A DNA stretch of 38,036 nucleotides from Verrucomicrobiota bacterium (lineage in GTDB: Bacteria > Verrucomicrobiota > Kiritimatiellia > UBA8416): NCBI GenBank assembly GCA_018645275.1, contig JABGOW010000489.1, positions 1 to 38,036 on the forward strand, read 5' to 3'. Under the pieces are notes generated by a model that was not told the DNA's origin, did no database searches, and was given only the letters and a program-made list of their open reading frames with translations. Each line of letters opens with the position of its first letter. Position 1 is the first letter of the stretch. Shown here piece by piece: positions 22,805 to 38,034 of this stretch. Made by a program: the position numbers and the translations under genes.

Positions 22805-24208
22805 ATGAGATCCAATAGTCCAATCCTTGCGGTCATCGTTGGCCTCATTGTGACAAGCATGCTGTGGGCGTCCTCGGCTATGGCTGCGGAGCTGACCAAG
22901 TACAGCTTTGAGGACAACGCCAACGACACGGCAGTCGGCGACACGCACGACGATTCGCTGAGCATGAGCGGGACAGTCAGCTATGTGCAGGGCCTTGTGG
23001 GCAAAGCCGCGTCCTTCACGGCTGGTAACTACTTTGTCGTCACAAACTCCAGCGATCTCAACCTGGGCACAGCGCCCTGGACCATCGAGGCATTTTTCAA
23101 GGTACCAGACCAACCCTCTTGGTCAGCCGTTTGCGCGAGCAAGTGGGATCAGGGGGCTCCTTCCGGCTACTTCTTCGGTTTACACGATTCGGACCAGAAA
23201 GTTGTTTTGGATAATGACAGTGGCATCGACGGGACAGCCGGGGATCCACTGGATGATGGCAAGTGGCATCATGTGCTCATCTCGAACAACGGAAACGGCG
23301 GTGACTCTGCCGGGGTGAAATGCTGGGTTGACGGCACAAACATCCAATCGGCGAACGGTTACAGCGAGGATGGCCCCGATGGGTATTTCTATGTCGGAGT
23401 TTCAAGTTCGAGCGGGAACTGGCCCTTCCCTGGAGTTGTTGACGAGCTTATCATTCACGACGAAGTCAAGGATTCTAATTATGTCGCCGAGAGAGTGGAA
23501 CTTCTAGCTGACGCGAGCATACTGACCCGCTGGTCCTTTGAGGGCAACGCCGAAGACAGCGGCCCGAGCGGGACCACTGCCGATGATCTGACTATTACCA
23601 ATGGCACCGTCACGTTCGTTGACGGTGTCCCCGGCATGGATGGCACCCAAGCCGTAAATTTCGGGGACGATGACGCTTACATGCGATTCAGCACCTTTCC
23701 CACCCCGGCGGATATCCGACTCCTGGCTGAACCCTGGACCGTTGAGCTGTTCATCAAAGTCCCGGCGGAGGCATCAACCTCATGGCAGTGCGTTCTGTCA
23801 TCTGATTACTCGCATGGCGGGTACTTCATTGGGCTGAAACACACAGACGAATATCTGACCAAGATTGGCAGCAGCAGCGGCATCACGGCAGTAGGTCCCG
23901 CGCTGGACGATGATGAGTGGCACCACATCATGATCACGAACAATGGAGACACCGATGACGCAAGCGGCTACAAGTACTGGGTAGACGGCGTCAATACAGC
24001 CAGCGGCTACGGCATCGACCACGCCGAAACCACGGCAGAGTACGGCAACTGGTTCACCATCGGCTGTGCAGGATGGGACACGGTCCACCAATTCGAGGGC
24101 ACGGTGGATGAAGTCATCTACCACAACGAGGTCAAAGACGCCTCGTATGTGGCTGTGCGGGCAGAGCTCAGGCTGCCGCCTCAAGGGACGGTGATCACGA
24201 TCCTCTAG
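22805..24208 (+). CDS. Secreted protein with two LamG/ConA-like jelly-roll domains and a C-terminal PPQGTVITIL tail
   Basis: GGAGG precedes ATG 22805, then a signal peptide. The pattern YSFE/WSFE..WTxE..DDxxWHH..VDG..GxVDE occurs twice. Confidence 0.85.
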   Translation: MRSNSPILAVIVGLIVTSMLWASSAMAAELTKYSFEDNANDTAVGDTHDDSLSMSGTVSYVQGLVGKAASFTAGNYFVVTNSSDLNLGTAPWTIEAFFKVPDQPSWSAVCASKWDQGAPSGYFFGLHDSDQKVVLDNDSGIDGTAGDPLDDGKWHHVLISNNGNGGDSAGVKCWVDGTNIQSANGYSEDGPDGYFYVGVSSSSGNWPFPGVVDELIIHDEVKDSNYVAERVELLADASILTRWSFEGNAEDSGPSGTTADDLTITNGTVTFVDGVPGMDGTQAVNFGDDDAYMRFSTFPTPADIRLLAEPWTVELFIKVPAEASTSWQCVLSSDYSHGGYFIGLKHTDEYLTKIGSSSGITAVGPALDDDEWHHIMITNNGDTDDASGYKYWVDGVNTASGYGIDHAETTAEYGNWFTIGCAGWDTVHQFEGTVDEVIYHNEVKDASYVAVRAELRLPPQGTVITIL

Positions 24209-24271
24209 GGCCTCCCCTGCAAACTCAATCAAGAGCATCGGCGCCCATCCGAGAGAGCGAGCGAAGAGAGC

Positions 24272-24335
24272 GGGGTCAGGCCTGAATGGCACTTTATGTT
24301 GCGCGCAACATAAAGCGCCATTCAGGCCTGACCCC
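24272..24335. repeat. 64-bp near-perfect palindrome (GGGGTCAG...CTGACCCC) between convergent genes; REP-like, possible bidirectional terminator
   Basis: GGGGTCAGGCCTGAATGGCACTTTATGTTGCGCGCAACATAAAGCGCCATTCAGGCCTGACCCC, one mismatched pair. Confidence 0.85.
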
Positions 24336-24361
24336 TCTTACTCCTGTGTGCGTTCATGCGC

Positions 24362-25753
24362 TTACTTGGAAAAGAAGCGTTGCTGGTGTGCACGGGCCAG
24401 TGCTTCCAGGCGTTTGGCTTCCTCCGGGTAAGCGTCGATGACATTGGTAGTTTCGTAGGGGTCGTTCTCCATATCGAAGAGCGACAGTGCGATCTCCTTC
24501 CTGGCGTATCGGCCCGGCTTGCCGTCCTTACCCGGCGTCACCAGCGTCCGGTAGCCGTGGGGCAGATGCAGCTTCCATTTGCCGTCACCGGTGATTATCC
24601 CTTCGAATGTGCCCACTGTTGAGAAGCCATAATACTCGTGGGGATTCACGGATCCCGGCTGCCCGCAAACCACATCCCAGATATCCTTGCCGTCAATCTC
24701 ATGAGCCGGCAGCTCCGCGCCCGCCAGGGCTGCGATCGTCGGAAAGAGGTCTATCGAACAGAACATCCTGTCACTCCTGCTCCCGGCCGCAATACGTTTC
24801 GGCCACTTCATGATGCAGGGACTGCGCGTGCCACCGTCGAACCCAGTGGCCTTGGCTTCCCGGTAGGGCGTGACGCCGGCATGATTGCCGTAACTGACCC
24901 ACGGGCCATTATCCGAGGAGAAGATAACTAGGGTATCATCTGCCACACCCGCGGTTTCCAATGCTCTGGTAATCTCACCGACTGACCAGTCAATCTCCAT
25001 CATCACATCAGCATAGAGCCCCTGCCCCGACTTCCCTTCAAACTTATCACTGCAGAATATCGGCACGTGGGGCATCGAATGCGGAACGTAGAGAAAGAAA
25101 GGCTCGTATGCATGGCGCTTGATAAAGTCTACGGCGTGCTCAGTAAACCAGGTTGTTAGCAGCTTCTGCTGCGTGCCCGTCACATCTTCAATGGCAATCT
25201 TCCCGTTCTCCCAGAACTGTAGCGGACAGTTGTCAAAACGACGCGAGCTGGGATGAAATCGCCACATGTCGTTGGAATACATCAGCCCACACGATTCGTC
25301 GAACCCGCGTGCCGGCGGCCGCGTCTCAGGGAGATCGCCTAAATGCCATTTGCCGAATACCGCCGTGGCATACCCCACCCCCTTCAGAAGCTGGCCCATT
25401 GTAGTCCACTTCGGGTCCAACCCTTTGGCGCGGGGAGGATGGGCCCCGAACACCTTGGTTCTCCCCGGATAACACCCGGTCATCAGCGCCGCCCGTGAGG
25501 CCGAGCAAATAGCCTGCGGCACGTGGAAATTGCTAAAACAGCGCCCCTCCCTGGCCAGTTGTTCAACATGCGGCGTCGGATAGGCTGTCTCGCCAAAGGG
25601 CCTGAAATCGCCAAAACCCGCATCATCCAGAAAGATGATCACCACGTTCGGCGGCCGCGGCGTCTCCTCCGCAGCCATGACGCCCGACGCCGCCACAAGC
25701 ATGCCCAATGCCGCAATCTGCATGAATCGCTTTCGGAATGACTCTCTCTTCAT
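24362..25753 (-). CDS. S1 sulfatase (arylsulfatase A-like)
   Basis: GAGGAG precedes MKRESF (25753). Motifs PNVVIIFLDD, CSASRAALMTG, GKWHLG, HSMPHVP and SDNGPW. Confidence 0.93.
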   Translation of the reverse strand: MKRESFRKRFMQIAALGMLVAASGVMAAEETPRPPNVVIIFLDDAGFGDFRPFGETAYPTPHVEQLAREGRCFSNFHVPQAICSASRAALMTGCYPGRTKVFGAHPPRAKGLDPKWTTMGQLLKGVGYATAVFGKWHLGDLPETRPPARGFDESCGLMYSNDMWRFHPSSRRFDNCPLQFWENGKIAIEDVTGTQQKLLTTWFTEHAVDFIKRHAYEPFFLYVPHSMPHVPIFCSDKFEGKSGQGLYADVMMEIDWSVGEITRALETAGVADDTLVIFSSDNGPWVSYGNHAGVTPYREAKATGFDGGTRSPCIMKWPKRIAAGSRSDRMFCSIDLFPTIAALAGAELPAHEIDGKDIWDVVCGQPGSVNPHEYYGFSTVGTFEGIITGDGKWKLHLPHGYRTLVTPGKDGKPGRYARKEIALSLFDMENDPYETTNVIDAYPEEAKRLEALARAHQQRFFSK

Positions 25754-25811
25754 ATCAGCTCCTCGTTCAGTGTGTGTGCAACCGGAGTCCGATGAATGGC
25801 AATCAGGAAGG

Positions 25812-27611
25812 CTACAGGCGCGTAACGTAGATGTAGTATGCTCCTGCGATCGTTTTGCCCTGCGGGTCGAGCATTGTTCCTTTGACCTGCGTTGCACCTT
25901 GCTTCAGCGGAATCTCAAATACAACTTGCTTGTCCTTATCGCTCACCTGCCGAACTTCAGAGAAGCCACCGACCTCCAGTTTGATCGCAGCAACAGGCAG
26001 GGCCTTCATCGTGTTTCCATAGATCAGCTTGTCCTTACCGCCTTTCGCGTCCCACGCATCGACTTCTTTCTTGAACACGGGAACGCCCTGGATCGGGGCA
26101 TTTGCTTCGCGCGGCCATCGGCGGACCTCAAACCGATATGACCCTTCTTCCGCGATGGCGATATCCCAGGCACCGATGCGGTTTGGGCCCTTGGCGACCT
26201 CGGCGTGGTTCCAGGGCACGGACGGCAAATACCAGTCAGCTGGTTGAAGGAGCGTTTCACGATCATTCGGATGTCCGACAATGAATCGAGGCTTGTCTCG
26301 ATCTCCCGGACACACCCGTTCCCAGTAGGCTTTGTGCTGCTGCCGAATCGTTTCAACGACCTCAGGATGCTGTTGGATGACATTGGTCTCCTGGCCGGGA
26401 TCTTTTGAGATGTCATAGAGCTCTTTGTTGTTTATCAGACGCCATCGTTTCGTCATCCCTACGGTTTTGGCCCAGGACTTGGGTTTGAACGTTCGTTGGG
26501 TTTCGACGAACAGGGTCCGCTCCGGTAAGTCCAGATCCGGCTGAAAGAGTTGTTGCTTGAAACTGCGTCCATCAAAATCCACCGCGCGTTCGGGGGACAA
26601 ACCACACAACTCGATCAGAGTCGGAAGAAGATCTATGTGTGCAGTCAGATCAAATACATCTGTGCCGTGCTTCAATTTGCCCTTGGGCCAATGCATGAAG
26701 AACGGCACCCGATGCCCCCCATCGTATACCTGGCACTTTCTCCCTCGCATACCGGCATTGAACAGCTTCACCCCCGTCGTGCCGCCGTTGTCAGTCATGA
26801 ACATGAGAATTGTACTATCAGCCTTACCGGATGCTTTGAGAGCCCGACGCAAGCGGCCTATATTTCGGTCTATGCGGCCGATACCGGCAAAGAAGTAGGC
26901 CTCTTCTTCCGAGACCTGTGAGTCGTACTTCTTGATCCATGATGTGTTCGGCAAGGTATGCGGAGTGTGGGGCATGTAGGTGGCAAGGTATGCAAAGAAT
27001 GGCTTGTCGTTATGATCGCTCTCATTAATGAAATCTATCGCCGCATTGAAGAACACGTCCGGAGCGTACCCATCCCGCTGAACCCGCTCGCCGTTGTGCC
27101 AGTAGTGATCGTTCACCCGGTCATTGTCAAACCAATCGTCGGTGGTGCCGGTGCCGCCGTCACCCTGCCCCAACCATTCGTCGAACCCGCGATCCATGGG
27201 TCGATAGGGATAGTTGGAGCCCAGGTGCCATTTCCCAAACATGCCGGTTCGGTAACCGGATGCCCTAAACACATCTGCCATAGTCATCTCCGATGCACGC
27301 AAATGGTTTCCTCCTGCGATGGTATGCCACACTCCTGCGCGATGAGAATACTTCCCCGTTAAGAGGGCTCCCCGGCTAGGTGCGCAAGTTGGGTCAACGT
27401 GGAAGTCGGTGAATCGAACAGACTCGTCGTGCAGTTTATCCAGGTTGGGCGTCTCAAGCACCGGGTTGCCATGACAACTCAGATCACCGTATCCCTGGTC
27501 ATCTGTAACAATCAGGATGACGTTGGGTGATTGTGATGCCGAAACAAGCGATGCAAATAGCAACGAAGTGAAAAGCATCAACGCCAGAGCAACTCGACTT
27601 TTGATTTGCAT
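25812..27611 (-). CDS. S1 arylsulfatase with a C-terminal beta-domain
   Basis: Signal peptide, PNVILIVTDDQG, CAPSRGALLTG, GKWHLG, TDNG and RRWPRE. Confidence 0.93.
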   Translation of the reverse strand: MQIKSRVALALMLFTSLLFASLVSASQSPNVILIVTDDQGYGDLSCHGNPVLETPNLDKLHDESVRFTDFHVDPTCAPSRGALLTGKYSHRAGVWHTIAGGNHLRASEMTMADVFRASGYRTGMFGKWHLGSNYPYRPMDRGFDEWLGQGDGGTGTTDDWFDNDRVNDHYWHNGERVQRDGYAPDVFFNAAIDFINESDHNDKPFFAYLATYMPHTPHTLPNTSWIKKYDSQVSEEEAYFFAGIGRIDRNIGRLRRALKASGKADSTILMFMTDNGGTTGVKLFNAGMRGRKCQVYDGGHRVPFFMHWPKGKLKHGTDVFDLTAHIDLLPTLIELCGLSPERAVDFDGRSFKQQLFQPDLDLPERTLFVETQRTFKPKSWAKTVGMTKRWRLINNKELYDISKDPGQETNVIQQHPEVVETIRQQHKAYWERVCPGDRDKPRFIVGHPNDRETLLQPADWYLPSVPWNHAEVAKGPNRIGAWDIAIAEEGSYRFEVRRWPREANAPIQGVPVFKKEVDAWDAKGGKDKLIYGNTMKALPVAAIKLEVGGFSEVRQVSDKDKQVVFEIPLKQGATQVKGTMLDPQGKTIAGAYYIYVTRL

Positions 27612-27674
27612 ATGGTCTCCTCTGGAATGCCTGACCCGCCCCCGATGGCGCTAACCTAAACGCCTATTCCAGTA

Positions 27675-27765
27675 CTTTGTCGCGAGCCTTGTCGCGAGCT
27701 TTGTCGACTCTTCTCTCAGACTCATGCTCTTTTCGACAAAGCTCAGGACAAAGCTCGCGACAAAG
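27675..27765. repeat. 12-bp unit (CTTTGTCGCGAG) tandem array with an inverted counterpart
   Basis: About 3 TTGTCG units, a spacer, then 3 GACAAAG units forming a long stem. Confidence 0.85.
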
Positions 27766-27799
27766 GTGCCTCTCGTGACTGCGTGACTCCGGGTGGGCT

Positions 27800-30388
27800 T
27801 TAAATGCCCGGGGTCACATCAATCGCTTTCTTCACTTTAGCTTTGTAGCCCTTCACGAGGCGCGGAACCTTGCGAGGCATAGGCTTCATCTTCTCAATCG
27901 GATTCGCTTCGATCATTTTCCCGGCTTCCAGGAGAACGGATATGGCGTCTGCCTGCACCACGCCGTTGCCATCCGGGCCTACATTGAGCAGCAGATTGCC
28001 GCCCTTCATGTTCACATCCTTGAGCTTCTCATAGACCGTGGCCGCATCTTTCCACTCGTCGTCACCCTTCCTGTATCCCCAGGAATCGTTCATGGTGTAA
28101 CAGGCCTCCCAATGGTTTTCTGCTTTCGCAGCGTCAAAATGTCTTTGTTCTTTGGTGAGGAAGTCGGCTTCAAACGCTTTGCGTTTGCCGACACGGTTGT
28201 TCATGATGACGTGCGAACTCGCGTTACGAAGGGCGTTGTAGAGGTCAATTCCGTCCTCAACGGTCCACCACTCAACCCACTCACCATCAAACCAAAGAAT
28301 GGACGGGTCGTAATTCTCAATCAGCTCCAGAAGTTGGTTCTTCTGGTAGTCGACATACGTCTGCTTGTCACTGCCTTTGCCGCGATCGCTGAGAAAGGTA
28401 CGTCCCCAGCGCCAATTCGGGGTCTTTTTCTGCAAACTCGGCACCTGTGTCGGGTGATTCCAATCCAGCACACTGTAGTAGAGACCGAACTTTAAGCCGT
28501 GTTTCTTGCAGGCTTCGTTGAGCTCGGCAAGGATGTCGCGTCCTTTGAACGGTGTACTGGCAACATCAAAGTCGGTATATTTGCTATCCCAAAGGCAAAA
28601 GCCGTCGTGGTGCTTTGACGTAATGACCAGGTACTTCATTCCCGCTGCCTTGGCGGTGCGGACAATGCGATCGGCATCAAATTGAGTCGGATTAAAATCC
28701 TTGATCACTTCCGCATATTCTTCGCGGGGAATTTCCAAATTGGCGGAGATCCACTCTGAATACTTGCCAGGCATCTTCTGCCCCTTGAACTCGCCACCTA
28801 ACTGAGAATAGACACCGAAATGAATGAACATGCCGTATTGTGCATCCACAAACCATTGCATGCGCTTGTTGTAGGCCTCGAGAGACTCCTCAATAAAGGT
28901 CGAGGGACCGGCGGCCGAGGGAGCCTTTGAAGACGACTGCTTGACCGCGCGTGACAGGAAAGGCGACTCAAGGGAAACCTTGATCACGGTATCATGCTCG
29001 TCGATTGCCTTGGCCGGCAGACCAATCAGGAGGGTTGCCCCTCTCTGGGAGAGCGAAACCTTCTGATCAGTTCCCTCGGGTGCAAGGAAGGCTGCTGAGG
29101 CGGCCTCAGCCCCCACCCCGTCGACACGTAGTTTACCATCGGACGGCCACTCCATGACGTGCAGGTAGAGACTCTTTCCATCCTTCGACAGGGAGGCATC
29201 GCCCCATTCCGGTCGGGAAGGTAGCGGGTTCGCCTTGGTGTCGTAAATCGATTCATGGTTATCACGCATCCAGTCGCCAATACCAGAGAACGACTCGACC
29301 GCCTTGGGATCAATCTTGCCATTCCCCATCGGGCCGCAGTTGAGAAGGTAGTTGCCCCCGGCACAGACCGTGTGGACCATGCGGTGGATGAGATCCTGAA
29401 GAGAGTGGTAATGGTGTTCGCCATGGGCCTTGTAGCCATAGGCTGAACTCACACTATCAGGTGACTCGGTGGTCAGAGGGAGCTTCTTCCATGGGACCTC
29501 TTTGTCGCCCAGCGAGATGTAGTCGAACATCTCGAGCATCTCCGGCGTGACGACCTGTTTGGAAGAGGCGCCAGCCATGGTGGAGAGACGGGAGTTGATG
29601 ACGCAATCGGGGTTGAGACGGCGCACGGCGTCGCCAAATAGGACGGCCCGCTCCCGGGTCATACCGCGGGGGGTGTCGAACCAGATGAGGTCGATCTGGT
29701 AGTTCTTAAGCAGCTCCTCGATCTGCGGCAGGGACTTGCGCGCGATGTAGGCGTCAATATCGGGTTCTCGATCTTCCGGCAGGTTGGGAAAGATGTCCTT
29801 GAGCGTCTTTTCACTGGTAAACGACGGGGAATCCGGGTCGCTCCAATCTTTGGCCTGCGAGTAATAGACCCCGAACTTCAGCCCATGCTTGTGGCAGGCC
29901 TCGGAGAGTTCCTTGATGATGTCGCGCTTGAAGGGCGAGGCATCCATTACATCGTAATCCGAGCAGGCGGAATCGAAGAGCGCGAAGCCATCGTGGTGCT
30001 TGGAGGTGATGACTACATAGCGCATGCCGGTGGCCTTGAAGATCTTTACCCACTCCTCGGCGTCGAAATCCGTGGGATTAAACAGACCTGCGACCTCCTT
30101 GCGGTACTCCTCGTAGGGGATACCGAGATCCTGCTGGATCCACTCGGAGTACCTATATGAGCCCACGCGGTCCTTGTATTTCCCGGCCAGCGTGGAATAG
30201 GCCCCGAAGTGGATAAATGCGCCGAACTTCGAATCGCGAAACCATTTGTTCAACCGTACCTCCGTTTCCGGAGGATGTTTCAGCGTGGAGGGCATGAGTT
30301 TGTCGAAGTCCTTGCTCCTTCTCTCCCCCGCATGGACGGAGACTACGCAAAGGAGGGCGAGTAGCAAGAAGATGAAAACTGTTTTCAT
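27800..30388 (-). CDS. Alpha-L-fucosidase with two tandem GH29 catalytic domains
   Basis: GGAG precedes MKTVFIF (30388). The set WF..xxFIHFG / SEWI / TSKHHDGF / WFD / GGNxLLNxGP occurs twice. Confidence 0.92.
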   Translation of the reverse strand: MKTVFIFLLLALLCVVSVHAGERRSKDFDKLMPSTLKHPPETEVRLNKWFRDSKFGAFIHFGAYSTLAGKYKDRVGSYRYSEWIQQDLGIPYEEYRKEVAGLFNPTDFDAEEWVKIFKATGMRYVVITSKHHDGFALFDSACSDYDVMDASPFKRDIIKELSEACHKHGLKFGVYYSQAKDWSDPDSPSFTSEKTLKDIFPNLPEDREPDIDAYIARKSLPQIEELLKNYQIDLIWFDTPRGMTRERAVLFGDAVRRLNPDCVINSRLSTMAGASSKQVVTPEMLEMFDYISLGDKEVPWKKLPLTTESPDSVSSAYGYKAHGEHHYHSLQDLIHRMVHTVCAGGNYLLNCGPMGNGKIDPKAVESFSGIGDWMRDNHESIYDTKANPLPSRPEWGDASLSKDGKSLYLHVMEWPSDGKLRVDGVGAEAASAAFLAPEGTDQKVSLSQRGATLLIGLPAKAIDEHDTVIKVSLESPFLSRAVKQSSSKAPSAAGPSTFIEESLEAYNKRMQWFVDAQYGMFIHFGVYSQLGGEFKGQKMPGKYSEWISANLEIPREEYAEVIKDFNPTQFDADRIVRTAKAAGMKYLVITSKHHDGFCLWDSKYTDFDVASTPFKGRDILAELNEACKKHGLKFGLYYSVLDWNHPTQVPSLQKKTPNWRWGRTFLSDRGKGSDKQTYVDYQKNQLLELIENYDPSILWFDGEWVEWWTVEDGIDLYNALRNASSHVIMNNRVGKRKAFEADFLTKEQRHFDAAKAENHWEACYTMNDSWGYRKGDDEWKDAATVYEKLKDVNMKGGNLLLNVGPDGNGVVQADAISVLLEAGKMIEANPIEKMKPMPRKVPRLVKGYKAKVKKAIDVTPGI

Positions 30389-30502
30389 AAAAGGCTCCAT
30401 TCATTTGGCGCATCCGGGATTCTCATTTCTCCCCTTACGACCTCATGGCTAGGGAGCATCCCCTCAATACACGATACAATCCATACGTCGTCGCACAACA
30501 CC

Positions 30503-30576
30503 ATCATGGCAAATGAGCCGCTGCCCAAGAACAGCAAAGATGCATCATTTCAGTCCTGCCACGCATCATCCGGGAA
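30503..30576 (-). promoter_or_regulatory. Direct-repeat (ATGATGC x2) promoter upstream of GH29
   Basis: GCATCAT at 30542 and 30563 (21 apart), with -10-like CATGAT at 30503-30508. Confidence 0.65.
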
Positions 30577-30641
30577 GACTGAATCCGTTTACTCAACCGG
30601 AACGCGCAGCTCGGTTGTGCTGCTTACGGAAACCCACAGAA

Positions 30642-31115
30642 TCAAATCGCGGCCTGCAAGCGTGTTGCACGAAACACGCCGACTATGCCGCCATCACTGA
30701 AACGCAGTGTGCCACCCCGGGCATTGTCGATATCGTTCGCCTTGTCGTAGAGCACGACCCTGTCTACCCGCATGCCCTTCTCCAGGTCGATGCGTATCCA
30801 AGGAGTCTGCTCTCCTTTCGATGACCATTCACCCTCAGGGGTCATGATGCCATCGACAGCCTTGTCGGCGCGGTATTGCTGTGAGTATTCAGAGGAAACT
30901 GACACTGATTCCACCACATTGAAGGGGACCGATTTCTCATAGAGCGGCACCAGCGGCTCGTAGTCAGCGTGATTGGCAAGGCGGTTTGCCTTGGCGGCGA
31001 CCATCTCGAAATAGGGGAAAGACAACCGTTCCCCCTGCGGCGTAAACCGCCTCGTGAACTTCTCCGAGCCTAACTACTCCGTTTCCTTTGCCGTAAACTC
31101 CATCAACATCTGCGA
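30642..31115 (-). pseudogene. Degraded gene fragment with an F5/8 type C (discoidin-like) domain
   Basis: VSVSSEYS..YRADKAVDG..EWSSKGEQTPWIRIDL..VDRVVLYD..GTLRFSDG. There is an in-frame TAG upstream, no signal peptide or RBS, and the C-terminus degenerates. Confidence 0.65.
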
Positions 31116-31162
31116 TGCTCAAGGTTCTACGAATGACAACCGATTTCAGGACGGGACCCCAC

Positions 31163-31190
31163 TATTCAATATTCAACTTTCAATATTCAA
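31163..31190. repeat. Heptamer tandem repeat, 4 units of TATTCAA
   Basis: tattcaa tattcaa ctttcaa tattcaa. Confidence 0.8.
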
Positions 31191-31251
31191 TTCTCCCACC
31201 TCTCACCAGATGTTGCATTTCTCTCCGTCTTGCATCATCATAGTCTACGAA

Positions 31252-32349
31252 ATGAACAGCCCCCAAAAATCAATCCTGTTGCTCGCCGAGTGGGCTGACC
31301 CGAGGTTCTACAAGGGGGTCGCGCGGTATGCCAAGCAGGCAAACTGGCACCTGAACCTCGACGGCATATACGGGGGCAGGCTACCAACCGACTGGGAGGG
31401 TGACGGGTGCATCCACCTGGTCCAGAGCAAGGAAGCCCTGGACTTCATTGAGATGCTCAACGTCCCTTCCCCTGTGATGGGTGGAAATGCAGTCGGGGAA
31501 GGCCGTGAGGCCGCCGACTACTTTGCCCGTCTCGGGTTCCGGCATTTCGCCTTCTATACGACAGATCACTCTCAACCCATGTCACAGTCCCGATTCAGGG
31601 GGTACAAGGATCGACTGAAAGAGCTGGGGTTCTCTGCAACCGTACTGGACTGGGGTAAGAAGGGATCCATGAAGAAGGTTGCCTGGAAGGCGCGCAAGCA
31701 ATGGCTGAGCGGCAGACTGAAGCAACTGCCTAAACCGGTCGCCGTGTTCTGTATCGATGACCGACGCGCCCTGAGCCTGGTGGAGGCCTGCATGGATGTC
31801 GATATCGAGATACCCAACGAGGTGGCCGTTCTCGGTGTGGGTAACATGGAACTCGCCTGTGAGTGTTCGGCCGTTCCGCTCTCAAGCATCCGCCTTGATT
31901 TCGAACGACGGGGGTATGAGTCCGCAGCCATGCTGGACAGGATTCTCGATGGGGAGCAAGTAACCGAGCCCCTCATCCTGCCCTACGCGGGCATCGAAGA
32001 GCGCCGCAGCACCTACACGCTGGCGGTGGATGATGAACGCGGACGCAAGGCGCTGCGCTTCATGCTCGACAACTTCCACCGGCCGATTGGCGTCACCGAT
32101 ATCGCCGCTGCCGGCGGACTGACCCGCTGGCAACTCTCCTGCATCACAAAGCGGGATCTGGACACCACCCCGACAAAGCTACTCGAAGACACCCGCATCA
32201 ACAAAGCCTGTGAACTGCTCCGCACGACCAACTTCCCCATCAAGCGCGCCGCCTACGAGACCGGTCTCGGCACCGCCCTGCGCCTGCAGCGCATCTTCCG
32301 CAAACGGTTTGAGACCACGCCCAGTGCGTGGCGGAAGGCGCAGAAATAG
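31252..32349 (+). CDS. XylR-type regulator (periplasmic-binding-fold sensor plus AraC HTH)
   Basis: Start MNSPQK. Motifs GVARYA, LGFRHFAF, LPKPVAVFC, IPNEVAVLGV, PLSSI, ERRST and a C-terminal HTH ending FRKRFETTPSAWR. Confidence 0.9.
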   Translation: MNSPQKSILLLAEWADPRFYKGVARYAKQANWHLNLDGIYGGRLPTDWEGDGCIHLVQSKEALDFIEMLNVPSPVMGGNAVGEGREAADYFARLGFRHFAFYTTDHSQPMSQSRFRGYKDRLKELGFSATVLDWGKKGSMKKVAWKARKQWLSGRLKQLPKPVAVFCIDDRRALSLVEACMDVDIEIPNEVAVLGVGNMELACECSAVPLSSIRLDFERRGYESAAMLDRILDGEQVTEPLILPYAGIEERRSTYTLAVDDERGRKALRFMLDNFHRPIGVTDIAAAGGLTRWQLSCITKRDLDTTPTKLLEDTRINKACELLRTTNFPIKRAAYETGLGTALRLQRIFRKRFETTPSAWRKAQK

Positions 32350-32399
32350 GAGGAAGTCGGCACGCATTGTGGCTCCCCCCCGATGCGTCGGGGCTCAAG

Positions 32400-32626
32400 C
32401 GCTTCAGGGAGCAATTCCCGCTTGTTGATACGCGATTCCGGGGGTTGCACCCCCGGCTGGCGTGTTACTCCCCTTCGGGGAGCCGGAATCACCTCCGCAA
32501 TGGAGACAAACAGGTCTCTCTTCATCAGGAGCGGGGACCACGTCCCCAACGGGGACAAACATGATAGCCCAGCCAGAATGGCTGGGGATCGTTGCCATCC
32601 AAAATCATGGCTCCCTGAAAGGGAGC
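32400..32626. repeat. Two divergent multi-hairpin REP-like units
   Basis: CCGGGGG-ttgca-CCCCCGG and CTCCCC-ttc-GGGGAG, then the inverted unit GTCCCC-aac-GGGGAC, CCCAGCC-agaat-GGCTGGG and GCTCCC-tgaaa-GGGAGC. Confidence 0.7.
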
Positions 32627-32730
32627 AACAATGGGCACCACATACACAACGATCTCAGCACGCAAATGGCGCGATCCCGCGAGAAAACCGCGGGATCGTG
32701 CACCGCCGCCTCACAGAAATTCCTTCGAGT

Positions 32731-35700
32731 CTACTTGAACTTGAAGATCGCCCCTATAGCTGGCATCCGCAGGACGCCACTGCCACTGAAGTAGGTATCA
32801 TCCTCATTGTCTGCGCCACTGCCGACCGCACCGTACGTGCCCTTGGTGTGTTGCTGTACACCATTCAGATACAGTGATCCCACGGTCTGATCAATCCCGC
32901 TGGCCAGATCCATTTTGGCGCCCGATGCAATCCGTACGGTGCCTTCTGTATTCAGGCTTCCGCCAGCCGCAAGTGCGAGTACACCGGCATTGATCGTGAG
33001 GTAACCGGTGGTAGTGTTGGCGCCGGATAGCGTCTGCGTGCCGGCGCCATTCTTGAGCACTATGACACCATTCTGAATCGAGCCGCTGAAATTGCCGTCG
33101 CCGTCGTTGTTTCCAAGCCACAAAATGCTGGTGTTGCCTGTGTCGGATTCGTAAACCGTGCCGCTGCCGTCGAGGGCGTCGATCTTGAATGTTCCGGTCC
33201 GGATGTCGAGCGTTGCGTCGACCGTAACATCAAAGTTACCCGAACCTGCCACCACCCCTGCGTTCGGGTTGACGATCAGGTAGCCGCCCTCGATCGAGAT
33301 GGCGCCACTGAAGCTGTCGAGACTGGTCTTACTGGTGCTCCAGGCGATGTCCTGATGACCCGAGCCACTCTTGACCAGCGTGCCGGAGCCCAGAATGGAG
33401 CCACCGCTCCAGATGGAGCGATCTACTGTCGATGCCGTATTTGTCAGTTCCAGGAAGCCGCCGCTGTTGATCGTTATCGTGCCGACATCCTGCCGGCTTC
33501 CAGCATTGCTCTGCGCCGACGTGTCCAGTACCAGCGTGCCTTCACTTTCAATCGTGGTCGACGATGTAGCGCGCGTCCACGTACCACCCGTCAAGCTGGG
33601 TTGCTCCACCAGCGTGCCGCCATTAATCGTCGTCGTTCCGTCGTATGTATTTCCTTCAGCGTTGGCCAACGTCTGCGTGCCGCTGCCGCTCTTGATCACT
33701 GAGAAGCCATCTGGATCAACCAGCGTGATCGCCCCACTGAAGGTGCCGCTACCATCGTTGTTACCGAGGCTGAGTGTGTTTCCAGTGCCACTGGAATTCT
33801 TTACGGTGCCTGCACCATCAAGAGAATCGATCAGAACCGTGCCACTGCGTACGTCAAATTCGGCACCCAAGGCAACGGTCACATCCGAATTACCCGACCC
33901 CGCCGTGCCAGTATTACCGGAGTTCACCGCGAGCGACCCCTCATCGACACTGATTGCACCATTGAAGCTATTCAGACTGGCTGCGCTCCCGCTCCAGGCG
34001 ATGTCTGCTGGGGATCCACCACTCTTAACCAGCGTACCACTGCCCAAAAGAGAGCCTCCCGTCCATATATATTTGTCGGTTCCTGTGTTGCTACTGTCGT
34101 GATGGAGCTCAAGCGTTGCTCCGCTATTGATCGTAATGGTACCCACATCCAGTCTGGATCTATTATCAGTATAGGAAGTTGTATCGATAATCAGCCTAGC
34201 GCCGTCGGCAATGGTCGTCTCGCTCATCGGCCGAGTCCAGTCCGGATTGTTCAGGCTGGCTGCAGTACCATCACCGACCGTCACTTCCCTCAGCGTGCCG
34301 TCAGAAACGGTCAAGGTGCCGCTGTAGGCATTGCTCTCCGCGTTGGCCTGCGTCAGTGTGCCGTCGCTGTCTTTGACTATGGAGTACGTATTACCGGCAC
34401 CGCTATTATAGTCGGCTATCCCCAATTCATTGGTCAGAGTCACCCCGCTCGCAATGTCAAACGTCAGCGTTCTGTTCCCATTGAAATCTCCGGGAGTAAT
34501 CAGGTTGTCCGAACCGCTCACGTCCTCAATCAGTGAGTCCGCTGTTACGGTCACGGCGTCGAGAACAACAAACGATCCCCACGCAGTATTCAACCCACCT
34601 TTGCTTTCCAGTGTCCCGCCATTCAGGGTGAGGTTATCAAATGTAGTGACCGTTGCGGATGAGTCAATCACCCCACCGCTATTGACAACTACATCCGGGA
34701 TTGACCCGTCTTTGCTGAGCTGGTTGAAGTGGCCAAAGGCCAGCGTGCCACCATTGTTGATCGTGACGGTTCCCTGTGGCCCGGGGGGATTGGCGCCTCG
34801 ACTGAGTATCAGCGTACCGTGGTCGATGGTTGTCGCCCCGCTGTAAATGACGGTTTTCGTTTGTTCGGACAGCGTGAGGGTATCGGTAGCATCCTGAGCG
34901 TTGAGGGTCAGCCCAAAGGATCCGCCGGAGTCGCTGATCACTCCACCGAGGGTCAACGGACCCTCGTTCTCAATCGTTAGATCGTCTTCCAGCGTGATTG
35001 GGGTGCTGTCCGTATAGGCGACACTGGAGCTGATGAGCGTTTTGGTTCCACTCGAGCCAGCCTCGACAGTCAAACCCGCCTTGGTCGTGAAAGTTCGGGT
35101 AGCTCCGGAAATCTTCAACTCGGCATCAGCGGTGCCCGATGTATCACCGAGGTGAACGGTAGTAGCGGCAGTACCCAGGGCACTATCACTTGACTGCGCT
35201 TCAAGCCGCCCGGCCTTGACCTCGACCTTGGCAACACTCTTAGTGCCTCCACCGAAAAGGACGCTGCCGCTGGAGGTGTCCACGACAAAGGAGCCATCTC
35301 CGCTGATGTTGCCATCAAAACGGTTGGCGGCACCCAGTACTTGATCGCTGCTGTATTTAAAAACGGCACCGGAGGCTATTGAGAGTTCTCCATGATAATC
35401 GCCAACCTTGCCCGAACCGCCGATCTCCAGCGTGCCTTCGTCGACGGAGGTGTCGCCCGTGTAGGTGTTGGCGCCGGTGAGCGTCAGCGTGCCGCTGTTG
35501 GTCTTGGTGAGACCGTCGGCTGTACCGGCGATGACGCCGCCACCCAAGCTGTAGTCAGACGAAGAGTCCACAAGAATGCTGGCTGGACTGACCGTGCCCG
35601 AAATGCTGACCGTGCCCGCCCCTGTATCCAGGAACTGCACGGCATCGCCATCGTCGTATGTTCTCCCGCTCCAACTGGTCGCGTCACTTGTCCCCGTCCA

Positions 35701-36438
35701 GGTTGTATCGGGACTGCCGTCCCATGTCAGTGCAGGAGCGGCTGTAACTTGGAAATACTGTAATTTGGCACCGCTCCAGGTGCCGCCAGCACCTATGGTG
35801 GTGGTGAAATAGGCGCCGACGGAAATGATGTTATCGGGATCAGCCGGGTTTGCTCCTCCCCCCGTTACGCCAAACAGACTGAATGAACTCCACGTTAAAT
35901 CTCCAATAGCCGTATTGATGGTGGTGTAGTCATCATCAGTCAGCGTCTGGTTACTCTGATACCAGCCGTCCGCAGTTTCGATAAGATATCTAGCGGTGGT
36001 TGTTCCACCGCGAGTTGCAAACTCTATAGCGAATGAGGCCAGGACCCTGTCGCTGGTCATGAAGTCAGGTGCTTCCCAGGCAATCATGCTCTCAACAGTG
36101 CCCCCGGCACCGCCGAAGTTCTTCACCATCTGAATAGCATCTGTACCACCGGCACCGCCATTTTCATTAGGACCAAAAGGGTTCCCGTTTGGGTCCATCG
36201 CCCCGTAATAATTGCGGGTCTGCCCTGCCGCATTCGTCGAATACCCACTGGCTCCGTCAGCCGGACTAACATAGGTACCGGTGTAAGTCGTGCCGTAACT
36301 GCCGTTGGCATTGGCGGTCACGATCGTGTCGTCACCACCGGACTCACCCCACTTGACGATGGTAGACGCCGAAGCACCGCTGGACAGGCAAAGCATGGCG
36401 ACAACGACCCACGACGTATTTTTGAATGTGCTCTTCAT
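32731..36438 (-). CDS. Large secreted beta-helical protein with autotransporter-associated beta-strand repeats, no beta-barrel, C-terminal PAIGAIFKFK tail
   Basis: AAGGAG precedes MKSTFKN (36438), then a signal peptide. Multiple LTKxxxGTLTLxGxNTYxGxTxxxxGTL repeats. G/T/S/D-rich. Confidence 0.88.
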   Translation of the reverse strand: MKSTFKNTSWVVVAMLCLSSGASASTIVKWGESGGDDTIVTANANGSYGTTYTGTYVSPADGASGYSTNAAGQTRNYYGAMDPNGNPFGPNENGGAGGTDAIQMVKNFGGAGGTVESMIAWEAPDFMTSDRVLASFAIEFATRGGTTTARYLIETADGWYQSNQTLTDDDYTTINTAIGDLTWSSFSLFGVTGGGANPADPDNIISVGAYFTTTIGAGGTWSGAKLQYFQVTAAPALTWDGSPDTTWTGTSDATSWSGRTYDDGDAVQFLDTGAGTVSISGTVSPASILVDSSSDYSLGGGVIAGTADGLTKTNSGTLTLTGANTYTGDTSVDEGTLEIGGSGKVGDYHGELSIASGAVFKYSSDQVLGAANRFDGNISGDGSFVVDTSSGSVLFGGGTKSVAKVEVKAGRLEAQSSDSALGTAATTVHLGDTSGTADAELKISGATRTFTTKAGLTVEAGSSGTKTLISSSVAYTDSTPITLEDDLTIENEGPLTLGGVISDSGGSFGLTLNAQDATDTLTLSEQTKTVIYSGATTIDHGTLILSRGANPPGPQGTVTINNGGTLAFGHFNQLSKDGSIPDVVVNSGGVIDSSATVTTFDNLTLNGGTLESKGGLNTAWGSFVVLDAVTVTADSLIEDVSGSDNLITPGDFNGNRTLTFDIASGVTLTNELGIADYNSGAGNTYSIVKDSDGTLTQANAESNAYSGTLTVSDGTLREVTVGDGTAASLNNPDWTRPMSETTIADGARLIIDTTSYTDNRSRLDVGTITINSGATLELHHDSSNTGTDKYIWTGGSLLGSGTLVKSGGSPADIAWSGSAASLNSFNGAISVDEGSLAVNSGNTGTAGSGNSDVTVALGAEFDVRSGTVLIDSLDGAGTVKNSSGTGNTLSLGNNDGSGTFSGAITLVDPDGFSVIKSGSGTQTLANAEGNTYDGTTTINGGTLVEQPSLTGGTWTRATSSTTIESEGTLVLDTSAQSNAGSRQDVGTITINSGGFLELTNTASTVDRSIWSGGSILGSGTLVKSGSGHQDIAWSTSKTSLDSFSGAISIEGGYLIVNPNAGVVAGSGNFDVTVDATLDIRTGTFKIDALDGSGTVYESDTGNTSILWLGNNDGDGNFSGSIQNGVIVLKNGAGTQTLSGANTTTGYLTINAGVLALAAGGSLNTEGTVRIASGAKMDLASGIDQTVGSLYLNGVQQHTKGTYGAVGSGADNEDDTYFSGSGVLRMPAIGAIFKFK

Positions 36439-36523
36439 GATGTTCTCCTTCGCTCTTTCTGCCGATCGGTATGAGGTGCTTTTGGCCAGCACATCCCGAC
36501 ACGAGATCCCTTGCATATGATCT

Positions 36524-36597
36524 ATTATCCCAAGGACGCGCCCATTAGGGCAACGCAAGACAGGCATCATTCGGGGGTGCGATGCATCATTTGGGGA
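36524..36597 (-). promoter_or_regulatory. Direct-repeat (ATGATGC x2) promoter upstream of the beta-strand repeat protein
   Basis: GCATCAT at 36564 and 36584 (20 apart), with -10 GATAAT at 36524-36529 and TTGCCC 18 bp upstream of it. Confidence 0.65.
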
Positions 36598-36610
36598 GAC
36601 TTCTTCTTGC

Positions 36611-36674
36611 GTAGGACGGGCATCCTGCCCGTCTGTGCAATACGGCCTACAGACGGACAAGATGTCCGTCCTAC
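36611..36674. repeat. GTAG-type REP doublet (intergenic)
   Basis: GTAGGACGGGCATCCTGCCCGTC ... GACGGACAAGATGTCCGTCCTAC. Confidence 0.85.
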
Positions 36675-36717
36675 GAAGAGAGTGGCGACGGAATCCGATG
36701 ACCAGTCAAGTTTCAGC

Positions 36718-38034
36718 CTACCGAACCACAAACACCATCCCCACTGGATCCGGCGCCTTGACTCTCAGTAGCACGTTGTCGATCGTGACTTCAGAGTCGG
36801 CCACAGCATCACGGGCGAATACGAGCGTGACGTAGTCGAAATCCTCAACACCGCTAAATCCCCACTGCTCAAGATCAACCACCTCGGCAAATCTCGCGGA
36901 ACCTGCCGTCACGCCAGTCAGTGTGACCAATGGAGAGTAGTCTACCCCAAAATAGGCAGAAGGCGCCGATTCTGAAATCGTATCCCCTCCGACAAACTCA
37001 GAGGAGCTTATGTCCGTGTTGTCGAAATCCAGCTCAAGATACTGATATCGCCCGATACCACCGGCGGCGCCATGTCCATAGTTGCCGATGCGGGAAAGGG
37101 AGTTGGTGTAGGAACCCCGGGTTCCGAACAGATAGACGGAAAGCGACTCACCGGCGGCCGCCAACGTGTAATCAAAGCTCAGGCTGAGCTTCGTTCCTGT
37201 CATCGCTGTCCCCACACGAACCCCCTGCACCAGAGCGCCCTCACTGGCGGCATCATCCGTATCCCCGGCATTGCGCAAAACGCCGCCGGAAATCGTCCAA
37301 TTCCCAACCGCCGAGCGCCAACCGTCGCCTAGGTCGTCCGGCCGATAATTACCGCCGTCTTGTGTCAGGGTGTCGATTGCAAAGGAGTCACGAATAAGGC
37401 TACCCGCCCGGAAAGACGAAGCAACCAGACCGGCCCCGTTCCGCAGGTTGGGCTGGGCGACCTCACTCCAGGCGAAACGCATGGTCGTCGGAACGGGCAC
37501 CGCCGGGGAACTGAGGACCACCTTCTTGCCGCTCACCACGGCAGTGGCCGAGGTATAGACGCCTTCGCTCACTTCAAGCTCGAACCAATCAGGAGCCAGC
37601 CCATCGCTGGTCGTCAGGCCGGTAGCAGAATCAAAAGTGACCTCCAGCGTACTGCCGACGGTCTTCAGGTACTGGAACGTCGGTCCAGTGCTGATGATGT
37701 TCTGACCGTAGGTGTTAGCCAGCGCCAGCAATGCCAGGCGCTCTCCGGGTACTTGCTTATTCCTGGGATGAAGCTCAGTGAGGTCCGTGGCTCCCGTTGA
37801 GTCGTGCACGGCATCCGTGATCACTGCCATACCGGCATTGGTAACCTCACCGAGAACTGCGGACTGCGCTTCCCAGAAAAACGGGAGGACGCCATCGTCG
37901 ATGGCTGTGGTGGCGTTCGCGGTGTAGTCAAATGGCGCGATCTGCACGTAGTAAAACGGGAAGGCTTCGCCCCACAGGGAGCGCCAGCCATCGATGAGAG
38001 CCTTCTTCTTTGCCACATAGGTCAACGGCTGCCC
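36718..38034 (-). CDS. Sialate O-acetylesterase-type protein with an extra C-terminal beta-domain and a PDPVGMVFVVR tail; 5'-truncated by the window edge
   Basis: Frame is open to the window end. Motifs LIDGWR, PFYYVQIAPF, LHPRNKQVPGERLA and RFAWS..PNLRNGAGL..SFR. Confidence 0.85.
   Translation of the reverse strand, partial: GQPLTYVAKKKALIDGWRSLWGEAFPFYYVQIAPFDYTANATTAIDDGVLPFFWEAQSAVLGEVTNAGMAVITDAVHDSTGATDLTELHPRNKQVPGERLALLALANTYGQNIISTGPTFQYLKTVGSTLEVTFDSATGLTTSDGLAPDWFELEVSEGVYTSATAVVSGKKVVLSSPAVPVPTTMRFAWSEVAQPNLRNGAGLVASSFRAGSLIRDSFAIDTLTQDGGNYRPDDLGDGWRSAVGNWTISGGVLRNAGDTDDAASEGALVQGVRVGTAMTGTKLSLSFDYTLAAAGESLSVYLFGTRGSYTNSLSRIGNYGHGAAGGIGRYQYLELDFDNTDISSSEFVGGDTISESAPSAYFGVDYSPLVTLTGVTAGSARFAEVVDLEQWGFSGVEDFDYVTLVFARDAVADSEVTIDNVLLRVKAPDPVGMVFVVR

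Follow-up and report, generated by a model that had tools for sequence, protein, structure and literature searches.

A short C-terminal tail as a candidate sorting or anchoring signal of surface-type proteins in Kiritimatiellia

Three tail proteins at one locus

The window analysed in this study is a stretch of 38,036 nucleotides from a Verrucomicrobiota bacterium of the class Kiritimatiellia (contig JABGOW010000489.1 of assembly GCA_018645275.1), and its subject is a tail of about nine residues at the C-terminus of three of the encoded proteins. The original prediction, made from the sequence alone, had taken this ending for a sorting or secretion signal, a short terminal strand read by a dedicated export or anchoring machine encoded elsewhere. 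The window makes up an entire contig (C190) of a draft genome of 4.69 Mb, called the source genome below, which has 581 contigs and is 95% complete. Genes were called with a simple home-made codon-usage script, which gave 3,804 open reading frames (ORFs) covering 84% of the genome, 22 of them in the window. Signal peptides were tested with a heuristic script that is likewise home-made, and this caveat applies to all counts from the source genome.

The first of the three genes (22805..24208, plus strand) encodes a twin Laminin_G_3 (LamG) protein of 467 amino acids (aa), counted from the Met before the signal peptide; it matches PF13385 twice and was recovered as P0124 in the set of LamG homologues. 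Its predicted Sec signal peptide of about 27 residues ending in ..SSAMA (22805..22885, plus strand; putative cleavage site) passes our heuristic, and this region forms a helix (residues 6-21) in the AlphaFold2 (AF2) model. The tail LPPQGTVITIL (24173..24205, plus strand) is followed by the stop codon at 24206-24208, and the translation ends in ...RLPPQGTVITIL. The second gene (32731..36438, minus strand) encodes an autotransporter-associated beta-strand repeat (PATR) protein of 1,235 aa (PF12951, TIGR02601; recovered as P0004). Its predicted signal peptide (MKSTFKNTSWVVVAMLCLSSGASAS; 36364..36438, minus strand) was read by eye, and the first heuristic missed it because the longest ORF begins 74 codons upstream. 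Here the tail is MPAIGAIFKFK (32734..32766, minus strand; stop 32731-32733), and the protein ends in ...RMPAIGAIFKFK. The third gene is the 3' part, of 438 codons, of an esterase-like gene (36718..38034, minus strand) whose 5' end is cut by the contig end; it has no Pfam match at E<=0.01. Its tail APDPVGMVFVVR (36721..36756, minus strand; stop 36718-36720), with the end ...KAPDPVGMVFVVR, matches both regular expressions described below. This ORF carries an extra C-terminal domain of about 220 aa, and a paralogue elsewhere in the genome (C410:2094-2741) stops right after the shared esterase part with a tail of its own. The tail is thus modular, as two paralogous esterases bear it after different domain ends.

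The translations show what the original prediction had read in them: all three proteins have Gly at position -7, Pro two to three residues earlier and hydrophobic residues at -5, -4 and -2, and none of the remaining 19 called ORFs of the window ends in this way (3/22 overall). Around the three tail proteins are two sulfatases, a GH29 fucosidase, LacI-, AraC- and XylR-like regulators, a ROK kinase and a major facilitator superfamily (MFS) sugar transporter. From this gene content, the window is a predicted polysaccharide-utilisation-type locus.

The tail motif in the source genome

Is such an ending more frequent than chance would allow? The pattern first proposed, anchored at the C-terminus, matches 33 of the 3,804 ORFs, while 1.1 matches would be expected from its internal frequency (383 matches in 1,307,909 positions), and the scan thus confirms a C-terminal excess. 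A refined regular expression, G[TSMGAL][VILM][VILFMY].[VILFY][RKQH]$, matches 38 ORFs against 0.46 expected. When the last 30 residues of each protein were shuffled in 200 rounds, the mean number of matches was 0.365 and the maximum 3; the mirror-image motif gave 1 match. The excess is far beyond chance, and the motif is real.

The consensus of the tail is P-x-G-T/S/M-V/I/L-F-x-V/F/I-R/K/Q-COOH. Pro, which is absent from the refined expression, stands at -9 in 21 of the 38 tails and at -10 in 10. Other positions are conserved but not invariant, with T or S at -6 in 27/38 and F at -4 in 24/38. Gly at -7 is fixed by the refined expression. The terminal residue is R in 22 tails, K in 8, Q in 5 and H in 3, and one match to a relaxed expression ends in F. 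A profile built from the 38 tails adds about 17 further ends that have Pro or Ala in place of Gly or deviate in the last residue (for example ..PPAPTLFKFR, ..TPEPSLFKFK and ..PPQGTVITIL), so that there are roughly 55 carriers in the genome in all. The last of these examples is the LamG tail of the window, which is atypical for its final Leu in place of R/K/Q and ranks fourth by profile among the C-termini outside the refined expression.

Could the conserved element be DNA or RNA instead of peptide? The Gly codons in the tails are GGG (16), GGC (13), GGA (6) and GGT (3), and the terminal Arg and Lys are spread over 6 codons; a DNA or RNA element is ruled out by this diversity. After the stop codons of the 38 matched genes we found no frame continuing, and no read-through or longer signal. 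Since synonymous codons are free and nothing is conserved past the stop, selection acts on the peptide and not on a DNA element. The stop codon itself is TAG in 25 of the 38 tail genes, as compared with 1,551 of all 3,804 called ORFs (41%), an excess that may reflect codon context after Arg or Lys.

Carrier proteins

The tail is enriched among proteins with a signal peptide. By our heuristic, 26 of 38 tail ORFs have one, compared with 780 of the remaining 3,766 (odds ratio 8.3, p 4e-10); a looser earlier version gave 28/38 against 1,047/3,766. The heuristic missed 12, of which 6 are interrupted by a contig end and 2 are short 3' fragments; in 2 others a signal peptide can be recognised by eye. 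Pfam assigns to 39 carriers LamG (4) and PATR (4) and, as single cases, GDPD, DUF642, esterase, S9 peptidase, CBM4_9, malectin, LTD, Ig-like and other domains; it finds no sulfatase or glycoside hydrolase (GH) catalytic domain in them. NCBIfam adds choice_anch_C on one carrier at 1e-46 and the T5SS/PEP-CTERM-associated repeat on 2. Right-handed beta-helix and PKD proteins prevail among the carriers of four genomes that belong to other families of the class, and in carriers of three other genomes a choice_anch_Q domain ends 10-11 residues before the stop codon. The tail therefore appears to stand where an anchor is chosen, judging from these 'choice-of-anchor' carriers. When 115 carriers from five genomes were clustered with their tails trimmed, they fell into 60 clusters, 44 of them singletons, and none of the tail-bearing families recurred in all five. 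At loci L087-L136 of three genomes from other orders (G366, G047 and G306), a motif ..(M)G(C/A)YE.., which is the end of the choice-of-anchor Q or beta-helix domain, usually precedes the tail and gives ..MGCYEYVPxG(M/T)hFxhR before the stop.

Is the tail part of the preceding fold? In the AF2 model of the window LamG protein, which was made with a 70-row alignment and has a mean pLDDT of 84, the last helix covers residues 446-454 and residues 455-467 are coil, with a pLDDT of 52 in the last block; the tail is not packed into the preceding LamG domain. The tail is also coil in a second model, of a CBM-like tail protein with a 6-row alignment, but the mean pLDDT of 59.5 is too low for this model to be weighed.

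Exchange of the tail in homologues

How do homologues of the carriers end? PATR homologues were collected with the last 250 residues of the window protein. The 119 found divide into 7 with the tail, 2 with a tail-like end, 43 with a PEP-CTERM-like end, 16 with a final F/W (the autotransporter type), 25 of an FYR type described below and 26 others. After the same C-terminal module, P0027, P0096 and others have the tail, and P0117 continues into PEP-CTERM. The 149 LamG homologues comprise 7 with the tail, 4 tail-like, 18 PEP-CTERM-like, 12 FYR-type, 8 F/W and 100 others. In an alignment of 7 single-LamG proteins, the end ..LYPCGTVISIK of P0137 stands on the ..(V)PEPS, transmembrane (TM) helix and RR(RR) of five others, and the Pro is invariant. 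Thus the tail and PEP-CTERM are exchanged for each other in both sets. Orthologues at 53-65% identity end in PRGTLITIQ, PRGTMVVIQ and PQGTLIFIK, which means that the pattern is kept through substitutions. LamG proteins of tail-poor relatives have nothing special at the end or have an FYR-type domain.

This second and longer ending, which belongs to surface proteins of PVC bacteria, is a domain that spans about 50-90 aa, contains a Trp and closes with ..(R)FYR(V/I/L)x(1-9). Its expression has 21 matches in the source genome against 4.2 expected (for example C325:6266-7231, C285:16054-23505 and C113:465-7226), and it also occurs in the homologues P0039, P0052, P0057 and others; the precomputed domain lists hold no Pfam name for it. 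It is an alternative end of homologous PATR and LamG proteins and coexists with the tail in the source genome. It differs from the bare tail in its length of about 50-90 residues and its W...FYR(V/I/L) signature, and the relation between the two is not established.

Taxonomic range

By its RpoB the source organism belongs to Kiritimatiellia, as the named matches, at 74-77% identity, are to 'Kiritimatiellia bacterium' (three times), a 'Lentisphaerae bacterium' MAG and 'Verrucomicrobia bacterium'; the LamG loci matched named genomes of many phyla, and only distantly. Tails in other genomes were counted with a back-translated degenerate DNA pattern, and the reversed pattern served as control. In the source genome the DNA pattern has 23 matches and the control 1. 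Among the 41 genomes of the same order, the highest counts (matches/control) are 55/3 in G004, 30/1 in G007, 19/3 in G010, 17/1 in G015, 16/2 in G031 and 14/0 in G037, and counts are near zero in G003, G006, G016, G017, G021 and G025. In 151 genomes from other orders of the class, there are 38/4 in G401, 18/0 in G047, 17/2 in G306, 16/1 in G366, 16/1 in G123 and 15/0 in G114. One family, f26, includes G366 together with G260 (13/1) and G389 (12/2). None of 200 genomes from other classes of the phylum has more than 5 matches, which is the noise level, as controls also reach 5. A narrower DNA pattern gave the same taxonomic picture. As judged by the DNA-pattern counts, the tail is confined to the class Kiritimatiellia. 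The consensus differs from lineage to lineage, with PRGSVFKIR in G401 and GT-LLL-R in G047 as examples.

A near-identical 30-mer (CCTCACGGCTGATTAGTA..GGT.AGCTGA), which recurs in many genomes of the class, for example at G218:C105:4456-4485 and G236:C1:1224303-1224332, gives one or two matches to the DNA pattern in each. Clearly this conserved sequence is not a tail but probably an RNA gene, and it counts as a false positive.

Search for the machine that reads the tail

Which machine could read such a tail? Co-occurrence with the tail was tested by hand for six families, and none of them tracks it. Exosortase (PF09721) was rejected on two grounds. It is found in 0/13 genomes of family f26, which are 92-100% complete and of which several are tail-rich, and in 41/41 genomes of the order whatever their tail count: G003 has 0 tails and 3 exosortases, while G007 has 30 tails and 1 exosortase. 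In the class sample at large PF09721 is present in 136/151 genomes, against its 0/13 in f26 (e.g. G260, G366, G389). The source genome has 3 exosortase-family genes and only 3 PEP-CTERM matches at E<=0.01. PEP-CTERM proteins number 0-5 per genome and are small, and the PF07589 matches of the source genome are on proteins other than the tail carriers. Many genomes of the order encode giant exosortase fusions of about 1,340-1,500 aa, in which an N-terminal exosortase is followed by about 1,000 aa of tetratricopeptide (TPR) repeats, as judged by exosortase ORFs of at least 1,300 aa; the one in the source genome (C325:1165-5406, locus L018) adjoins a small PEP-CTERM-like protein and an FYR-ended protein. 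Every NCBIfam exosortase subtype score was below its cut-off.

Other candidates were rejected as well. Sortase (PF04203) is found in 0/5 tail-rich genomes, and three Gram-positive controls were positive. C25 (PorU-like) peptidases have 5 matches in the source genome and 0 in the tail-rich G366 and G114. The C25 (gingipain/PorU-type) domains of the source genome lie in ORFs of 886-2,484 aa (C285:16807-18003, C344:18191-19276, C244:2665-3750, C28:3830-4897 and C243:22032-22481), and elsewhere G047 has 2, G306 has 1 and G366 and G114 have none. SprA and PorV of the type IX secretion system (T9SS) have no match in the source genome, at its completeness of 95%, but the SprA model was also silent in every control genome. 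The autotransporter barrel PF03797 has no match in the source genome either, and its controls were positive. An extra Omp85 paralogue is not a suitable reader, as its copy number is unrelated to the tail counts, with one match in most tail-rich genomes; ten of them (G000, G002, G004, G037, G108, G114, G260, G366, G389 and G401) have a single match to PF01103 (Omp85/BamA).

Nor is there a machine gene beside the carriers, whether within 4 genes in the source genome or, in four other genomes, up to about 10 kb away from 65 tail sites. This agrees with the original statement that the machine is encoded elsewhere. The recurrent neighbours of tail genes are AraC, XylR-like and GntR-type regulators and sulfatases, GH29, GH78, GH28 and similar enzymes.

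Comparison with known C-terminal signals

No Pfam or NCBIfam (release 20.0) model matches the tail. PF07589 and TIGR02595 match neither the three window tails, even at E<=10, nor any of the 39 carriers, and PF18962 and TIGR04183 match none of those carriers. A literature search returned no paper that describes such a tail in the text available to it; 'C-terminal' and 'secretion' both have 0 occurrences in PMC6388578.

The short C-terminal sorting signals of prokaryotes listed in a preprint all have one design, namely a motif, a TM helix and an Arg cluster, with a cut by an intramembrane enzyme (bioRxiv 10.1101/2023.06.07.544157). Its section 5 lists eight attributes of such signals, of which the tail has numbers 1, 2, 6, 7 and 8, has number 3 in part and lacks 4 and 5 (bioRxiv 10.1101/2023.06.07.544157). 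With these tripartite signals the tail shares its position at the stop codon (in all 38), its multiple occurrences per genome (38/3,804 plus about 17), carriers with signal peptides, pairs of carriers that are alike only in the signal, and homologues with another signal or none. It differs in having 4-5 hydrophobic residues where they have a TM helix, and a single terminal residue where they have a cluster of two to five basic ones. The original description of the tail as lacking a TM helix and a basic cluster, and as far shorter than a T9SS C-terminal domain (CTD), holds.

Among known signals PEP-CTERM (PF07589, TIGR02595) is similar in many respects. It likewise stands at the extreme C-terminus of unrelated signal-peptide proteins, many per genome, and at the same position in homologous LamG and PATR proteins, where the Pro of the tail aligns with the first Pro of PEP; the order of motif, hydrophobic residues and basic end is also similar. 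However, PEP-CTERM has a TM helix and a basic cluster against the 4-5 hydrophobic residues and one basic residue of the tail, and tails also occur in genomes without a detectable exosortase. The T9SS CTD (PF18962, TIGR04183) is, like the tail, a C-terminal element without a TM helix on Sec-exported glycan-binding or glycan-degrading proteins and adhesins, and the CTDs on homologues of the window proteins in other phyla (PF18962) also end in a hydrophobic strand and a basic last residue. But the T9SS CTD is folded and tens of residues long, while the tail has 7-11. The tail differs from the LPXTG signal of sortase in having no TM helix, besides the missing PF04203, and the window PATR protein differs from a classical autotransporter of the type V secretion system (T5SS) in having no C-terminal PF03797 beta-barrel.

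There is a further likeness that the original prediction had overlooked when it stated that the tail has no terminal aromatic beta-signal. The beta-signal of outer membrane proteins (OMPs) has the consensus zeta-x-G-x-x-[aromatic/hydrophobic]-x-[aromatic/hydrophobic], as published (PMC10945584). Without its last residue, the tail reads x-G-T-h-F-x-(F/V/I) and fits this consensus at G and the two aromatic/hydrophobic positions, with Pro at the polar one, although the fit of G and the two hydrophobic positions is partly built into the regular expression; the statement thus needs correction. The likeness lies in G, two residues, F or another hydrophobic residue, one residue and F/V/I at the C-terminal end. 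Among ORFs of the source genome with an aromatic end, which are candidate OMPs, 11/55 have G at -6, the same register shifted by one. The difference is that the beta-signal is the last strand of a beta-barrel with an aromatic or hydrophobic end, whereas the tail carriers are multidomain proteins of a soluble type and not barrels, and the last residue is R/K/Q/H (by definition of the expression).

Discussion

What is the tail for? We consider it fairly probable that it is a C-terminal sorting or anchoring signal specific to the class Kiritimatiellia, read by an outer-membrane-directed machine. The part of the original prediction that stands is the reading as a sorting or secretion signal: the tail is modular, occurs many times per genome on signal-peptide proteins and unrelated folds, is swapped for PEP-CTERM and matches no known model. 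The terminal beta-strand and the destination of the proteins are putative, and what may not stand is the word 'dedicated', as the reader could be the general beta-barrel assembly (BAM) complex. As a possible scenario, the carriers would be exported through Sec, as suggested by the signal-peptide enrichment. A free, flexible tail would then be read in the periplasm by an outer-membrane-directed machine, which would move the protein to the cell surface or hold it there. In this class the tail would stand in for the PEP-CTERM, autotransporter barrel or folded C-terminal domain that homologous LamG, PATR, beta-helix and carbohydrate-binding proteins have elsewhere, and it would work without a TM helix or an exosortase. 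The tail has every comparative hallmark of a sorting or anchoring signal, but in a new architecture, and its destination and reader are ones that we infer.

Several points weigh against this reading. No co-occurring machine was found. None of exosortase, C25 peptidase, sortase or the number of Omp85 copies varies with the tail, and the recurrent neighbours are regulators and glycoside hydrolases. The signal is loose, because the LamG tail of the window ends in Leu and some tails have no Gly. The DNA pattern used for other genomes finds about one tail in two and repeatedly matches one sequence that is not a tail. Beyond Sec export, every step is one that we infer.

Then which reader is the best candidate? 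We tentatively propose the general BAM complex, though at well below an even chance, because the tail without its last residue fits the beta-signal consensus, most tail-rich genomes have a single Omp85 and no accessory family tracks the tail, which a universal reader would explain. On the other side, Pro stands at a position expected to be polar, the hydrophobic residues at -5 and -4 are adjacent while the candidate OMP ends of the same genome alternate strictly, there is an extra charged residue after the last hydrophobic one, and the carriers are LamG, PATR, beta-helix and similar proteins and not barrels. A complex of BamA (POTRA5 and barrel) with the second LamG domain and tail was predicted with a score of 0.00 and a mark of 0.32, which is neither for nor against binding. 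The BamA of G001 was used here because the only Omp85/BamA gene of the source genome (C88:7136-7861) is cut by the contig end, with profile positions 2-232 of 325 matched. This same-genus BamA has 786 aa and ends in ..WVIWIGYDY.

The likeness to PEP-CTERM gives rise to two other explanations. If the tail were a miniaturised PEP-CTERM still cut by an exosortase, possibly by the exosortase-TPR fusion of about 1,350-1,500 aa whose TPR array would catch soluble tails, it would be understandable that it aligns onto the PEP motif with an invariant Pro, that variants such as ..TPEPSLFKFK exist, that the source genome has 3 exosortase-family genes for only 3 PEP-CTERM matches, and that the fusions are conserved across the order. 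Family f26, where tail-rich genomes have no PF09721, largely refutes this; the presence of exosortase throughout the order regardless of tail count speaks against it too, and no TM helix would bring the tail to the intramembrane active site. We thus regard it as very improbable. The alignment with the PEP motif, and the loss of exosortase in f26, would also suit a functionless leftover of PEP-CTERM after loss of the TM helix. But a neutral remnant of 7-9 residues would decay, while orthologues and different orders keep the pattern, with synonymous changes free and replacements conservative, and it stands on proteins of many unrelated families, so that we find a leftover scarcely credible.

Might the tail act without sorting anything? 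It could serve structure or assembly, as a sticky edge strand with which the protein, once in place, self-associates or donates a strand to a partner, with Pro/Gly at one boundary and a charge at the other. There are indeed five to six beta-prone hydrophobic residues between P-x-G and R/K, an AF2 monomer cannot show intermolecular pairing, and no machine was found. Yet the same short sequence follows dozens of unrelated folds, replaces PEP-CTERM in homologues and comes after choice-of-anchor domains; these are together the signature of a sorting signal and not of a fold element, which makes an assembly element unlikely, though it partly overlaps with the 'anchoring' of the preferred explanation. 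Another idea is that a PDZ-type protease or chaperone of the periplasm, akin to Prc/CtpA or DegP, recognises the tail as a tag, which would then control turnover and not location. Free hydrophobic C-terminal peptides are classic PDZ ligands, and the tail is flexible in the AF2 model. However, no tested point supports such a tag, the terminal residue is basic and not non-polar, and a degron is hard to explain on about 55 mostly large binding proteins and enzymes, class-wide and exchangeable with an anchor signal; we give this idea very little credence.

If the tail is a sorting or anchoring signal as we suppose, what would it mean? Besides signals of the motif-TM-Arg design, the other option is, to our knowledge, a folded domain such as the T9SS CTD. 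For a tail of nine residues without a TM helix, reading in the periplasm would have to follow another principle. It may be, at somewhat below an even chance in our estimation, the first linear C-terminal address label in diderms without a TM helix or folded domain. About nine residues would then direct, in each cell, dozens of folded but unrelated proteins to the outer membrane or surface, by way of BAM and its docking site for the beta-signal or by a new kind of machine. If mimicry of the beta-signal is true, BAM, or something with the same docking logic, can handle cargo that is not a barrel. In practice, the motif would allow the surface or secreted proteome to be predicted with a one-line expression in Kiritimatiellia, which are described as major anaerobic degraders of sulfated algal polysaccharides; it would mark glycan-binding and beta-helix proteins in their polysaccharide-utilisation loci.

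A recurrent neighbour

The most recurrent neighbour of tail genes in the source genome is the XylR-like regulator (Peripla_BP_3 and AraC helix-turn-helix), of which 9 members lie within 4 genes of a tail gene; regulators of the AraC and GntR types are recurrent neighbours in other genomes as well. One of them is in the window (31054-32349, plus strand), and its 8 paralogues are beside other tail genes.

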